Virus record (IMG/VR): IMGVR_UViG_3300025174_001715
Strand: one strand, 5' to 3'
DNA: 41,525 nucleotides
Source: a virus
Shown here: positions 4,221 through 40,664 of the stretch, in pieces
Layout of the letters: each line of letters begins with the position of its first letter
Position numbering within the stretch: the first letter of the stretch is position 1
Position numbers and translations under genes: made by a program
The notes under the pieces: generated by a model
The model's database searches: none
Seen by the model: the letters and a program-made list of their open reading frames with translations, nothing else
What the model was told of the DNA's origin: nothing

Positions 4221-4418
4221 ATGAATGGATGGAAATCAACTATAATATCAGTTTATTTAATCACATTTAAAAATAATGATACTCCTCACATGATAGTAAA
4301 AACAAAAGAAGACGCAGTAGAATATTGCAAAGTTCATCCTGAATATGATTGGGATTGTTGGGGTGTAGAAACCAGAATCCCACAACTTGCAGTTAAAATA
4401 AAGAGAAAACATAAATGA
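4221..4418 (+). CDS. Hypothetical protein
   Basis: Internal ATG of ORF 4125-4418 with GGAGGT RBS. Confidence 0.6.
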   Translation: MNGWKSTIISVYLITFKNNDTPHMIVKTKEDAVEYCKVHPEYDWDCWGVETRIPQLAVKIKRKHK

Positions 4419-4774
4419 AAACGAAATCTGTAACAAATCAAGTTTATTGTTGTGAAGTATGTACTTATGAATCACCTAATAGCACAATGTTCAACACTTG
4501 CCTAGTATGTACCAAAAATTACTGTGTTTTGAATTGCAAGAGTGATTTGTATTTCATTTACAATCAAAATGTATGTAGAATATGCAAGGATAACCCAATG
4601 GTTGAAGAACTTACAGACAAGTGGCTAAAAGAATGGCGTGAGAAACTACCATTTGTTAAAAAAAGTTACCAAGACATAAGTAAGGAGGCTCTAAAATTGG
4701 ATAAGAGATTTGCAAAAGACTGGAAAGAGAATTTGGAGAAATACGAAGAAGAACACAGAGATTTAACACCATGA
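4415..4774 (+). CDS. Cys-rich zinc-finger protein
   Basis: CEVC, CLVC, CxxxC, CRIC; ATGA-coupled at both ends. Confidence 0.7.
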   Translation: MKTKSVTNQVYCCEVCTYESPNSTMFNTCLVCTKNYCVLNCKSDLYFIYNQNVCRICKDNPMVEELTDKWLKEWREKLPFVKKSYQDISKEALKLDKRFAKDWKENLEKYEEEHRDLTP

Positions 4775-5220
4775 GTACATGCAAGTCAGACAATTCTTTT
4801 TTCTTTATATTTATTCCAGTTATGGTGATGATGCTTCTCATAGTTAATCTAAGCTCAATCTCAAATAATAATGAGGATAGTTTGTTGACAGATGAACAGA
4901 AATTAGCAAAACAAAAAGTAATGGCACTGGAAAAAGAAAAGGAGTTCATCAAAAAACAAGAGGAGGCAAAATGGTGGGATGATCAGATAACCTACGTGTT
5001 AAATGAGAAACCACTTCCGATAGTTGGGATTGGCGGAATGATAATTTTTCTCACGTTAATTAAGACATCACAAATGAAAAGTGAATTTGGTATGATCTTT
5101 GGTGGTAGATGGAGATGGTTAAACTGGTTAAACATGCCATCAATCATTGTAATTTTTACAGGAATGATATATCTTGCATGGTTAGCTGGGTATGTTAATC
5201 TTACAGGTGCAGAAATATGA
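4771..5220 (+). CDS. Multi-pass membrane protein
   Basis: Three hydrophobic segments. Confidence 0.7.
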   Translation: MSTCKSDNSFFFIFIPVMVMMLLIVNLSSISNNNEDSLLTDEQKLAKQKVMALEKEKEFIKKQEEAKWWDDQITYVLNEKPLPIVGIGGMIIFLTLIKTSQMKSEFGMIFGGRWRWLNWLNMPSIIVIFTGMIYLAWLAGYVNLTGAEI

Positions 5221-5572: not shown

Positions 5573-5665
5573 TTAAATTTGTGAGAAAGCGAATAGAGCT
5601 CCTGCACCTGCGATCGCAGCAGAAAGGATCATACCAAACCAATCTGGTCTGCCTGATTTTGCCAT
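5573..5665 (-). CDS. Putative 30-aa membrane peptide MAKSGRPDWFGMILSAAIAGAGALFAFSQI
   Basis: Found by manual translation; one TM helix; ATG about 32 nt from the TTATAA box read leftwards. Confidence 0.5.
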   Translation of the reverse strand: MAKSGRPDWFGMILSAAIAGAGALFAFSQI

Positions 5666-5695
5666 TAGGTTATAGAAATTATGGGAGGTAATAAA

Positions 5696-5746: not shown

Positions 5747-7639
5747 ATGACAGGGGGAACGAGTCAAAACAAAATTGAAGAACGAAATCATAATCCGAGG
5801 CAAAACGATATTGAATTACAAAAAGATCGTCCGAGTCAGATTCCACTTGAAGAACACGCCAACTATCCGAGTCATTTTCATGTTGAAAAACACTACAAGA
5901 ATCCGAGTCATCTAGTAATTGAAAAACAGGAAAACGATACGAGCCATGATGGTTTTGAAGAACACATAAATGATTCGAGTCATAAAAAGCATGAAAAACA
6001 TAATACAGTTACGAGTCACAAACCACATGAAAAACAAGATTTGATTCCGAGTCACATAAATATTGAAGAACAAAAATTAGATCCGAGTCAATCAATATAT
6101 GAAACACATGATAAACTTCCGAGTCATAGGTTTGTTGAAAAACAAAGTAAAGATCCGAGTCAATGTAGAATTGAAGAACATAATCAGTATCCGAGCCAAA
6201 TGGAAGATGAAAAACGGAAAAAGCTTTCGAGCCAATCAATAATTGAAAAACATAAGATAGATTCGAGCCAAAAGAATGTTGAAATACAACATGTCAATTC
6301 GAGTCATGTAGACCTTGAAATTCAAAAGACGAATCCGAGTCACGATCCATATGAAAAACATGGTGTCATTACGAGTCAATATTTCGTTGAAGAACAAATC
6401 AATTATCCGAGTCATACCAACTTTGTAGAACAAAGTAACAATCCGAGTCAGTATTGGTTTGTAGAACAGAACAAAGATTCGAGTCAATTCATGCTTGAAG
6501 AACAGGAAAAAAATCCGAGTCAAATAATAATTGGAAAACAATTTTCATATCCGAGTCAATACTTGATTGAAATACAAAGAGTTGATACGAGTCAAAATAA
6601 AATTGAAGAACAAGCTAATAATACGAGTCACCAACTACATGAAGAACATGGTGTAATTCCGAGCCACACACCAGATGAAGAACATCGAATAGTTTCGAGT
6701 CACAGACCAATTGAAAAACATAATTATGATACGAGTCAAACCATATTTGAAATACAGAACGGTTATCCGAGTCATAGAACAGATGAAAAACAAAAGAATA
6801 ATTCGAGTCATTCATTTATTGAAAAACATAAATATAATTCGAGTCAAAGTTTAATTGGAATACATGACAAAGATCCGAGTCCTATCAAAATTGAAACACA
6901 TGGCAGGAATACGAGTCACAGTTTAATTGAAAAACAAAGCAGGGATACGAGTCACAGTGTAAATGAAAACCAAAACACTCTTGCGAGTCAAAAGAAAATT
7001 GAAGAACATGCGGAACTTACGAGTCTAAAGCATCTTGAAGAACAGAACAACTATACGAGTCATTTTCCAATTGGAGAACAATATTGGCATCCGAGTTATT
7101 TCTTAATTGAAAAATATGGCAAAGATACGAGTCAAAGTTTACTTGTAGAACATAAAAAAAATCCGAGTCATTGTACGATTGAAGAACAAAATCATAATCC
7201 GAGTCAAAATTTCTTTGAAGAACACTATGATAATACGAGTCACATAATAATTGAAAAACATGTTTCATATCCGAGTCAGTATTCTCTTGAAGAACAAGTC
7301 ATGAATTCGAGTCAAAGTTTATTTGGAATACAAAATGAACATACGAGTCATATGATGCTTGAAAAACAGGATGAGCATACGAGTCATCATGTAAATGAAA
7401 AACAAATGAAAGATCCGAGCCAAAACATTATTGAAGAACAAACTAATCATTCGAGTCAATTTCCATTTGAAGAACAATATGCGAATTCGAGTCATAGTAT
7501 AAATGAAAAACAAATAGTTGTTCCGAGTCATACAACCATTGAAAAACATATAGAATATTCGAGTCATCAAAAATTTGAAAAACAAGACACGCATACTAGT
7601 CCTAATCGCTTTGAAAAACAAATGGATGATACGAAATGA
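5747..7639 (+). CDS. Stop-free reading frame spanning the TIGR array (12-aa periodic PSH/Q-xxx-EE/KH/Q-xxx); protein status uncertain
   Basis: ORF track gives 5681-7639; ATG 5747 lies downstream of the promoter element; stop overlaps the tasA ATG. Confidence 0.45.
   Translation: MTGGTSQNKIEERNHNPRQNDIELQKDRPSQIPLEEHANYPSHFHVEKHYKNPSHLVIEKQENDTSHDGFEEHINDSSHKKHEKHNTVTSHKPHEKQDLIPSHINIEEQKLDPSQSIYETHDKLPSHRFVEKQSKDPSQCRIEEHNQYPSQMEDEKRKKLSSQSIIEKHKIDSSQKNVEIQHVNSSHVDLEIQKTNPSHDPYEKHGVITSQYFVEEQINYPSHTNFVEQSNNPSQYWFVEQNKDSSQFMLEEQEKNPSQIIIGKQFSYPSQYLIEIQRVDTSQNKIEEQANNTSHQLHEEHGVIPSHTPDEEHRIVSSHRPIEKHNYDTSQTIFEIQNGYPSHRTDEKQKNNSSHSFIEKHKYNSSQSLIGIHDKDPSPIKIETHGRNTSHSLIEKQSRDTSHSVNENQNTLASQKKIEEHAELTSLKHLEEQNNYTSHFPIGEQYWHPSYFLIEKYGKDTSQSLLVEHKKNPSHCTIEEQNHNPSQNFFEEHYDNTSHIIIEKHVSYPSQYSLEEQVMNSSQSLFGIQNEHTSHMMLEKQDEHTSHHVNEKQMKDPSQNIIEEQTNHSSQFPFEEQYANSSHSINEKQIVVPSHTTIEKHIEYSSHQKFEKQDTHTSPNRFEKQMDDTK
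5758..7638 (+). repeat. TIGR (tandem interspaced guide RNA) dual-repeat array, 52 units of 36 nt
   Basis: Exact 36-nt period (edge repeats at 5758+36n): TNCGAGTCA-N9-TGAARAACA-N9. Constraint is at nucleotide level: invariant NCG and AG(T/C) codons. Last units are degenerate. Directly upstream of a Nop-fold gene. Confidence 0.93.
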
Positions 7640-8538
7640 GTAATTCAAAAAAATCAAAGAACATAATGCGAGTGGAATATCAAGAACCACAACTTATTCC
7701 ACTTCCAATTATGCGAGGCTTGGTAGAAATTTTCTATGACTTTCAAGGACAGCGAATAGCTACTTTCAATAATGTATTGATGAATTGCGAACGAAATGGA
7801 ATCTCCGAAGAAGACTTGGAGAAAAAATATGGAGTAAAATCACTCATTGACGAGGCAAAAACTTTTGAAGATAAGATTAAGAAAAGACTCGATTCAGAAG
7901 TTGTTAATTATAAAATCTATGACAAATACTTGCAACATATCCAGGGTATAGGTTCAATTCTTTCCGCAGGATTAGTTGCTAACATTGGTGACATCGCAAA
8001 GTTTGATACTATATCAAAACTATGGATGTATGCAGGTTTAGGGTTTAACAAGTTTTGTCCAGAGTGTGAGCATCCTACTTTTGTAAACGTAGAATATGAA
8101 GATCGTGAAGGCAATATAACTAAAGGAAAGAAATTAAAACCATTTGAAAATTGTCCAGAATGTAATCACAAAACAAACCCAATAATTCAAAAGCGAACCA
8201 AAGGCTACCAAGATAATTGGAGTCCAAGATTAAGAGTTTTATGCTGGAAGATCGGTTCAAGTTTTGTAAAGCAAAAAGCAGCCAAGTCAGGCTATAGAAG
8301 AATTTATGAAAGTTTCAGACGAGATGATACAGAATTTCATCCAACAAAAGTGAAGGAAAATGGCAAGACAAAATACAATGACGGTCACATGTATAACCGA
8401 GCTGTAAGAAAAACTGTAAAGATTTTCATGAGTCACCTATGGATTACATGGAGAGAGATGGAAGGCTTGGAAGTAAAAGCACCCTATGTAGAAAAAGTTT
8501 TAGGCCACGATATAATTAAGCCATTCAAGGACAGATGA
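7636..8538 (+). CDS. tasA: TIGR-associated TasA-like protein (Nop/IS110 C-terminal RNA-binding fold, no RuvC/HNH), with Cys4 insertion
   Basis: LVEIFYDFQGQRI coiled coil; YLQHIQGIGSILSAGLVANIGDIAKF…SKLWMYAGLG; KRTKG…NWSPRL…WKIGSSFVK; GHMYNRAVRKTVKIFMSHLW…WREMEGL…PY…LGH; adjacent to the array. Confidence 0.88.
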   Translation: MSNSKKSKNIMRVEYQEPQLIPLPIMRGLVEIFYDFQGQRIATFNNVLMNCERNGISEEDLEKKYGVKSLIDEAKTFEDKIKKRLDSEVVNYKIYDKYLQHIQGIGSILSAGLVANIGDIAKFDTISKLWMYAGLGFNKFCPECEHPTFVNVEYEDREGNITKGKKLKPFENCPECNHKTNPIIQKRTKGYQDNWSPRLRVLCWKIGSSFVKQKAAKSGYRRIYESFRRDDTEFHPTKVKENGKTKYNDGHMYNRAVRKTVKIFMSHLWITWREMEGLEVKAPYVEKVLGHDIIKPFKDR

Positions 8539-8816
8539 CATTAGTAACTTGGAAAGACAGAATCGGTCTTGCACTAAAGAAAGGTAAATTCACAAAAGAA
8601 GATGATCAACTGGCAGTAGACTTTAACACATGTGCAATTAGTGAAAGAGTAAATAAAAAATTCGTCAATAATAATCAGGCATTTGAATATCTTACACCTA
8701 AAGCTGGTTCATTAGGTTCAAGATTTTATAATCATGTTCACTCAAACCAAGTAAAATCGGCATTAGCAATTTATAAAAAGATACAAAAACTAAAGCGATT
8801 AAGAAGAAGAAAATGA
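8535..8816 (+). CDS. Hypothetical basic protein
   Basis: ATGA-coupled to tasA. Confidence 0.65.
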   Translation: MTLVTWKDRIGLALKKGKFTKEDDQLAVDFNTCAISERVNKKFVNNNQAFEYLTPKAGSLGSRFYNHVHSNQVKSALAIYKKIQKLKRLRRRK

Positions 8817-8943
8817 AACAGGAAGTTAGATTCAACCCATACTTGGATTATAATGAAAAAAATTTTGGATTGTTAAAGCTTCGTGCAAGGTATCCAAAAG
8901 AAACCGAGGATCAGATTTATGACAGACTGTTTGGTAGAAGAAA

Positions 8944-9255
8944 ATGAAAGAACCAGAATTTCATCCAAAATCATTAAAAAGTAAGGATAAGATTATCAAA
9001 TTACATTATGAAACGCTGAAGAAATGTATCAAAATCACAAACCATTTCGTTGATTCAAAGATTAAGAGTATGACTTGGCATTTGGATAATGGATTTACAA
9101 TTACCTTTAGAGATAGAAAAAGGAATAGAATTAAGCCACAACTAAAATTATTAAAACCAGTATGGGATATTGAAAAAGCAGTTAAATCAATGAATACTAG
9201 AGAAGGAAAGAAACTGCAAAAGAAGTTAAGCGATAGTTATCGTGGGGATAGATAA
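8944..9255 (+). CDS. Hypothetical basic protein
   Basis: 103-aa ORF in the operon. Confidence 0.6.
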   Translation: MKEPEFHPKSLKSKDKIIKLHYETLKKCIKITNHFVDSKIKSMTWHLDNGFTITFRDRKRNRIKPQLKLLKPVWDIEKAVKSMNTREGKKLQKKLSDSYRGDR

Positions 9256-40354: not shown

Positions 40355-40664
40355 ATGTTTTGAACTAAATTGTTATAAAAATTTAAAATAAAAATCAATA
40401 GTGGTCTACCTCAAAATAGATTTCGACACCTACCAGACAAATGTGTGAATGGGAACTTTTGAATCTCCTAATCAAAGAAATTTTTAGGCACAAAATTTTT
40501 AACCGATTTTGGAAACATGAAATAATTACAACTTTTACTATAGATTTTACAAAAAGAATTCGACTCCTACTCTCCCCCCCCAGACAGACAAAGCGACAAA
40601 AAGGTAGACAAAACAGGATTAGTAAGTACATAATACTTATAACTTCGTTTTGAAATTCCAATTA

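Follow-up and report, generated by a model that had tools for sequence, protein, structure and literature searches.

The guide array of a TIGR-Tas system in the viral DNA analysed here (IMG/VR virus record IMGVR_UViG_3300025174_001715; 41,525 nucleotides (nt), the whole of which we call the window) is at the same time one open reading frame (ORF), which starts at an ATG of its own, crosses every guide unit without a stop codon and ends on the start codon of the adjoining gene, tasA (Table 1). Shuffling of the spacers, homologous arrays with different spacers, and a stop-free frame that moves with the register of the units all support what an initial annotation of this DNA had proposed, namely that spacer content is filtered by translation, and the guides do appear to have been selected for being translatable. 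We consider it probable that the array is both a guide array and the first cistron of an operon chained by ATGA overlaps, translated so as to carry transcription and ribosomes through to tasA.

Table 1. Features of the array-tasA locus, in positions of the window
Feature	Position	Strand	Description
Tandem 13-nt element (AAGTTATAAGTTT x2) with TTATAA	5694..5719	+	Likely archaeal TATA-type promoter of the array-tasA operon (putative function)
Array ORF	5747..7639	+	630 codons from ATG to TGA, stop-free, frame A
Dual-repeat TIGR array	5757..7628	+	52 units, each exactly 36 nt (column composition; Tandem Repeats Finder period 36)
Shortened terminal edge repeat (ATACGAAATGA)	7629..7639	+	Carries the TGA of the array ORF and, overlapping it, the ATG of tasA
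tasA	7636..8538	+	300-residue nuclease-less Tas protein with Cys4 insertion
Next open frames of the chain	8535..8816 and 8813..8947	+	Each overlaps its predecessor by ATGA

Each unit, as resolved by column statistics, is composed of an edge repeat ATnCGAGTCA (columns 1-10), spacer A (columns 11-18), a loop repeat TTGAArAACA (columns 19-28) and spacer B (columns 29-36), giving blocks of 10+8+10+8 nt of which both spacers are variable. Read in frame A, this layout specifies a 12-residue repeat (xCG-AGT-CAn / GAA-rAA-CAn, that is P/T/S-S-Q/H...E-E/K-Q/H) in which four codons per unit, at columns 12-14, 15-17, 30-32 and 33-35, are encoded wholly by spacer sequence. A recount returned exactly the figures first given for these codons, 208 in total with 0 stops, and for the spacers that open with an out-of-frame stop triplet, 14 of 104 (6 at column 11 and 8 at column 29). 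Over the spacer positions as a whole, stop triplets occur at 0/208 in frame compared with 51/416 out of frame (Fisher p = 3.5e-10), and the other two forward frames of the array contain 31 and 79 stops. Neither of two types of shuffle, the test that the initial annotation had named for its claim, ever reached zero stops (0/20,000 each), with a mean of 10.8 in-frame stops when column composition was preserved and of 18.4 when letters were shuffled within spacers; the analytic probability of zero in-frame stops for this array is 6e-6. The absence of in-frame stops from the array of the window is not a chance outcome. Beyond this avoidance of stops, the spacer codons show no codon-usage bias relative to the unread frames.

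The array ORF closes with ...GAT GAT ACG AAA TGA, and the ATG of tasA, at 7636 and in another frame, overlaps this end by the 4 nt ATGA, which bears out the earlier observation that the junction resembles those of other coupled genes in this genome. The array ORF stops at this TGA (7637-7639), and the units do not lie inside the tas coding sequence; in the relatives, too, the array ORF and tasA are invariably divided by a stop codon.

Whether other TIGR arrays share the frame and the overlap has a divided answer. The expectation was confirmed for the relatives in the window's clade but not for a sister clade and some distant arrays, which have stops in every frame. When 269 distinct frame-A units were pooled from seven arrays (those of the window, L043, L044, L112, the first part of L037, L039 and L040), in-frame stops numbered 0/1076 against 236/2152 out of frame (p = 3e-44), and spacer sets are essentially unshared between loci, the arrays of L037, L039 and L040 having repeat cores in common and spacers that are unrelated. 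Even relatives (L043, L044/L098 and L112) with TasA proteins 96-97% identical to that of the window, have only 10-13 of ~50 units in common with it; their arrays are open for 645-676 codons with the same ATGA end, and the ending ...DDTK* followed by the ATGA overlap recurs in L042, L043, L044, L098 and L112. The indels found in these close-relative arrays are of +3 and -3 (L112) and +6 (L043). An ambiguous NN at 4272 interrupts the array of L112, of which both flanks are open and the continuity of the ORF at that point cannot be judged.

Among the other relatives, L039 holds 81 units in register (82.75 unit-lengths) in an ORF of 992 amino acids, and L040 and L037 have 52 and 13+33 units in ORFs of 620 and 596 amino acids, respectively, that adjoin tasA. 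The only in-frame stop found in the window clade is a TAG at 3996-3998 of L040, which is directly followed by the in-frame ATG that opens the 620-residue ORF. In the gene calls of close TasA homologues these frames appear as a long 'hypothetical protein' adjoining tasA, which the DNA of L037, L039 and L040 identifies as arrays. The 553- and 550-residue genes that adjoin tasA in the P0003 loci, and the 301-residue and 38-residue genes of the P0012 loci, are known from gene calls alone and are consistent with array ORFs; the P0002 locus, seen in the same way, has only a 113-residue gene and a 300-nt gap and is a possible exception. Open arrays are also present in L050, with 11 units in frame B, and in L086, with 5 units, each ending 1-2 nt short of tasA; the array of L091 is split into two overlapping ORFs. 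Among upstream arrays the junction between the array ORF and tasA is, judged by its spacing, always of the coupling type: ATGA in the window, L039, L040, L043 and L044, TAAATG in L037, a 1-nt overlap in L065 and the 1-2 nt gap in L050 and L086.

Register shifts within three of the related arrays act as natural tests of the frame. In L037 an 8-nt irregularity (+8) moves the unit register, such that frame A (xCG-AGT-CAn) is read upstream of it and frame B (ATT-CGA-GAC / TTG-AAA-AAC) downstream, and the stop-free columns move from 12/15/30/33 to 13/16/31/34. In the 33 downstream units, stops are found at 0/132 of the frame-B columns, compared with 16/132 of the frame-A and 13/132 of the frame-C columns. 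In L047, whose TasA is 55% identical to that of the window, the register is displaced twice, by +2 at a 38-nt unit and then by +1 at a 73-nt double unit, and a 323-residue ORF spans both shifts with 0 stops, the other frames having 21 and 28. In L065 the array, with a ParB-like gene on one side and tasA on the other, begins in frame B and continues in frame A within a single 224-residue ORF whose stop overlaps the tasA ATG. Given that the purged lattice follows the unit register in all three loci, the constraint acts on the reading frame and not on fixed RNA positions or on a particular peptide; only a reading-frame constraint explains why the stop-free frame moves with the register.

The sequence of events that we propose would begin with transcription, probably from the TATA-like tandem element, and with ribosomes that probably initiate at ATG 5747, behind a very short leader, and cross all 52 units. 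Having terminated at the TGA over the tasA ATG, they would re-initiate at that point and again at the later ATGA junctions. Overlapping gene pairs coupled by termination-reinitiation are known in both archaea and bacteria (Huber et al. 2019, PMC6728339; PMC10666635). Selection would discard any spacer or indel that places a stop in whichever frame is contiguous, with the consequence that about 1 in 3 random spacer pairs would be unusable as a guide. The likely benefit would be the transit of ribosomes itself, by which 1.9-3 kb of otherwise non-coding RNA would stay coupled to translation and avoid premature termination and decay of the polarity type; coupled ribosomes are known to protect nascent RNA against factor-dependent termination (PMC13681488). 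Transit would also deliver ribosomes to tasA, which in the window lacks a Shine-Dalgarno-like motif of its own: no such 4-mer precedes it, whereas 39% of starts in the window have one against a background of 12%. As a more tentative extension, to which we would give slightly less than even chances, translation may serve as a processivity or anti-polarity device, with long arrays existing in this lineage only as cistrons and the balance between ribosome transit and TasA processing setting the ratio of guide to effector.

Since processing by TasA would act on the RNA that ribosomes translate, the two would compete, and the autoregulation suggested in the initial annotation could have a place in this model. 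An account built on this competition would hold that translation and processing draw on one precursor and that cuts at the edge repeats sever the array ORF from tasA, such that TasA output falls as TasA accumulates and the frame is kept open since ribosomes handed on from the array are needed to make TasA. Such a loop fits the upstream arrays of L050, L065, L086 and the window clade, which adjoin tasA with junctions of the coupling type, and also the missing Shine-Dalgarno-like motif at the tasA of the window; dual-repeat Tas proteins are required for the processing of their arrays (PMC12045711), and the TIGRFinder preprint suggests that Tas translation and the maturation of tigRNAs are connected (bioRxiv 10.64898/2026.09.09.750476). 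Against it stand the open array of L047, which lies downstream of tasA and past a small ORF (6904-7092), and the Shine-Dalgarno-like motifs that precede tasA in several relatives. We regard autoregulation as unlikely to be the explanation of the open frame, and it is compatible with, rather than exclusive of, the translated-cistron model.

A less probable proposal still is that the encoded polypeptide is itself selected, as a long disordered chain of 12-residue repeats with hypervariable positions. Such a chain might serve as a decoy, or have a function in trans comparable to that of the disordered tails at the N terminus of some TasA proteins. The open frame does begin with a start codon, array-encoded repeats are found inside or at the N terminus of some Tas proteins (P0043-P0045, P0048 and P0049), and L014 has units within its tas ORF. 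However, in relatives the nucleotide repeats are the same but the frame is a different one, so that the encoded peptide is unrelated, and some relatives switch in mid-ORF. The frame-A peptide (PSQxxxEEQxxx) has an isoelectric point (pI) of 5.8 and a net charge of -37, whereas the frame-B peptide of L037 (LKNxxxIRDxxx) has a pI of 11.2 and a net charge of +77, and this strongly basic product of the frame-B relatives, along with the lack of any codon signal beyond stop avoidance, speaks against the functional His/Gln/Glu-rich repeat protein that the initial annotation had entertained. Conserved positions also ignore codon boundaries, with invariant nucleotides falling on third codon positions (columns 5, 23 and 26) and a first position that varies (column 3), which is not the amino-acid-level conservation with freer synonymous sites of an ordinary repeat protein. 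The array ORF peptide matched no Pfam family, and a word-indexed protein search with the array ORF gave no match; phmmer gave 7 weak matches, of which five are Tas proteins with internal arrays (among P0043-P0049). AlphaFold2 single-sequence models of two versions of the peptide had mean pLDDT values of 48 (coil) and 33.5, with no confident fold, which we count as weak evidence. The peptide is probably not the point on which selection acts, and is best read as a disordered by-product of array translation.

It is very improbable that the open frame is a historical relic, in which stop-free units once multiplied within a coding region and left a frame that persists without present selection. Arrays inside tas coding sequences do exist and units do duplicate within arrays, as a few near-identical pairs in L039 indicate, but the turnover and register-shift data contradict such a history: the spacers are close to random, stop triplets amounting to ~11% in the frames that are not read, spacer turnover between strains with 96-97% identical TasA is near-complete and yet leaves no in-frame stop in the pooled units, and after a register shift it is the new frame that is the clean one. 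Least credible of all is a ribosome-independent RNA constraint by which UAA, UAG and UGA would be avoided at fixed tigRNA positions for folding or TasA binding: the loop repeat does contain a fixed UGA as part of a conserved RNA motif, but the avoided positions form a strict 3-nt lattice that moves by one column when the register shifts with respect to the start codon (L037, L047 and L065), and sister arrays with the same repeats have stops at all positions.

The arrays that are closed help to define where the constraint applies. In the sister clade, comprising ~22 TasA sequences mostly from sediment metagenomes, arrays of 5-15 units lie downstream of tasA and have the same repeat cores, a unit length of 35-38 nt and stops in every frame, amounting to 83 in 226 units even in the best frame. 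The cores CGAGTCA / TGAAAnCCA are thus shared with arrays that are closed in all frames, from which it follows that the conserved blocks are blocks of nucleotides and not of codons. On the TasA tree the closed state forms essentially one clade, and open arrays belong to the window clade, to L086/L091 and to L047, L050 and L065, which sit on branches of their own. Upstream/open and downstream/closed arrays differ significantly (Mann-Whitney p = 8e-5), a contrast that is phylogenetically confounded by these clade-bound states, and we have not counted it as independent evidence. We also rejected the generalization that long arrays are always open, since L022, L028 and L023 are long and closed. 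Separately, a strong 36-nt periodicity near a distant tas gene (L020, 9180-10466) proved to be a protein-coding tandem repeat (SVWASVRD-like) and not a guide array, a caution for array finders that work by period.

Several observations weigh against the translated-cistron model or limit its reach. The long closed arrays of distant Tas lineages (~38 units in L022, together with L028 and L023) imply that translation is not generally needed to express a long array. The clustering of open and closed states on the tree amounts to few independent transitions. GGAG- or GGTG-like motifs precede tasA in L037, L039 and L040, and coupling may therefore not be obligatory, while the open array of L047, lying downstream of tasA, means that feeding ribosomes to tasA is not the whole story. 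An avoidance of oligo-T, the archaeal terminator, in the array was tested and was not significant. Finally, we read the window as belonging to a virus of ammonia-oxidising Nitrosopumilaceae archaea, a host call that comes from one contig, that of L112 (TasA 97% identical, nearly identical locus), which was binned with a Nitrosopumilaceae archaeon metagenome-assembled genome.

The protein encoded by tasA matches Pfam Transposase_20 above the gathering threshold (25.5 bits against a cut-off of 21.3), and a profile built from 23 TasA homologues, out of 42 found in metagenomes, matches PDB entry 9mty (E = 1.3e-41) and the TasH entries 9w03/9w04 etc. (E = 6.9e-17). No nuclease family was detected in Pfam at E <= 0.1, and the conserved N-terminal motif YDFQxQRI begins at residue 34, which leaves no space for an N-terminal nuclease; the absence of this domain makes the protein a TasA and not a TasH or TasR. 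Its Cys4 insertion (CPEC...CPEC; window 8056-8163, residues ~141-176) is conserved across the group of 43-100% identity whereas more distant TasA proteins have a short gap in its place in the alignment, and P0005, P0007 and P0029 have an extra Lys- and Glu-rich insertion of ~40 residues just past it. With its homology to characterized Tas proteins, which have a Nop-type RNA-binding domain, its missing nuclease and its adjoining array of 36-nt units, the system of the window is classified on sequence criteria as TIGR-Tas of the dual-repeat TasA type.

At the RNA level, column 19 of each unit, at the loop repeat, and column 1 of the next unit, at the edge repeat, are Watson-Crick complementary in 48/52 units, as 39 T/A and 9 A/T pairs. 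This covariation suggests that the two positions pair in the tigRNA and that the pair is conserved; the TIGRFinder method phases arrays with RNA-level covariation of this kind (bioRxiv 10.64898/2026.09.09.750476). Its unit structure marks the 36-nt array as a genuine dual-repeat TIGR guide array for the neighbouring TasA, a DNA-binding protein. We searched the window for targets of its own 52 guides, requiring adjacent matches to spacer A and spacer B on opposite strands with <=1 mismatch, and found 8 matches, compared with ~9 in controls with reassigned spacers.

The 13-nt element in front of the array recurs in the window with 5 matches, against 0.36 expected. The same tandem (AAGTTATAAGTTT x2) stands at 229-254, ahead of an SPFH/Band_7 gene, and a fifth copy, with one mismatch, is found on the minus strand at 40633-40645; both tandems are followed by ACAATGACA at the start codon (ATG 261 and ATG 5747, respectively). 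The tandem is likely a shared archaeal promoter with near-leaderless starts. The ORF listing extends the array ORF to an upstream ATG at 5681, but 5747 is the likelier start because the promoter-like tandem falls inside that extension. Downstream, ATGA joins the cistrons 5747-7639, 7636-8538, 8535-8816 and 8813-8947 into a chain. Such junctions are frequent in the window, which consists of many small co-directional ORFs and in which no tRNA genes were found: ATGA joins 24/122 plus-strand ORFs (>=40 amino acids) to the following open frame, and 36/122 overlap the next open frame by 4 nt or 1 nt.

Some neighbouring features were recorded in passing. Just ahead of the array promoter, a 245-nt gap contains an ORF of ~30 codons on the minus strand (window 5582-5668), recognized by eye and encoding a small hydrophobic peptide (MAKSGRPDWFGMILSAAIAGAGALFAFSQI). 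In L047 (5076-5993) and L065 (2297-3196) a ParB-like gene, corresponding to the tasParB of Faure et al., is the direct upstream neighbour of tasA or the array ORF. The small ORF of L047 at 6904-7092, between tasA and the downstream array ORF, looks ribbon-helix-helix-like by eye from its translation, and a 112-residue ORF of the same locus (4707-5045) starts with array units. In L113 (4001-5374) a dual-repeat array is translated as the N-terminal extension of a TasA (P0044); its neighbours are cellular (SecD/SecF, guanylate kinase and a family-X-type DNA polymerase with a PHP domain), and this TIGR locus is apparently chromosomal and not viral.

Guide arrays, whether CRISPR or TIGR, are normally treated as non-coding, whereas this clade shows that a whole array of 50-80 guides can be held translatable by continuous selection, irrespective of the frame in use and of the peptide that it yields. 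This would be a previously undescribed cost on a guide repertoire and, if the interpretation is true, the first case of a guide-RNA array whose spacers are shaped by the genetic code, with about one random spacer pair in three forbidden by the ribosome. It suggests a simple way in which very long arrays could be transcribed completely in dense viral operons, and it offers a direct handle on the link between tigRNA maturation and Tas expression, a question that the TIGRFinder preprint leaves open. As gene callers annotate such arrays as hypothetical proteins of 550-990 amino acids, array finders that mask coding regions will miss them.

In the systems described by Faure et al. (Science 2025; PMC12045711), TIGR arrays are non-coding, most often of 5-15 units, and end in a terminator. 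The dual-repeat TIGR-TasA systems among them, such as FpTIGR of Flavonifractor plautii, have a layout like that of the window, here carried by a virus, and a tasParB neighbour is shared by the relatives L047 and L065; what differs is that the 52 units (81-82 in L039) form a stop-free ORF from their own ATG to the tasA start. Mechanistically, the junction resembles termination-reinitiation pairs (PMC6728339; PMC10666635) in its same-strand overlap of 4 nt or 1 nt within a genome rich in such overlaps, with coupling that we infer here, but the upstream 'gene' is one without a conserved protein product and is conserved as RNA. Long CRISPR arrays are known to need boxA/Nus anti-termination (Stringer et al. 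2020, eLife, as cited in PMC7862264), and in that account, as here, RNA polymerase must cross a long untranslated guide array; the solution proposed for the TIGR array is translation and not a Nus-type anti-terminator, in an archaeal host without Rho, and the parallel with the cited work is one of analogy only.

The closest precedent is provided by the TIGRFinder preprint of September 2026 (bioRxiv 10.64898/2026.09.09.750476), according to which dual-repeat arrays, though less often than stem-loop ones, can be embedded in the coding sequence of tas with its frame intact, as in BlTasA. In those proteins, as in the window (0 stops in 630 codons, replicated in relatives), an open frame traverses guide units undisrupted. 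We did not find in that preprint a stop purge of spacers or its dependence on register, and in the full-text literature we found no report of a long dual-repeat array as a cistron of its own coupled stop-to-start to tasA, of spacers purged of stops, or of a purge that follows register shifts. The intragenic units of the preprint are few, mostly of the stem-loop kind, and map inside the tas ORF to disordered loops of Tas, whereas in the window a whole dual-repeat array is a separate cistron in another frame, joined to tasA stop-to-start, and an array of this kind can change frame midway. Arrays inside tas genes were known; the stand-alone, coupled array ORF is, as far as our searches show, new.

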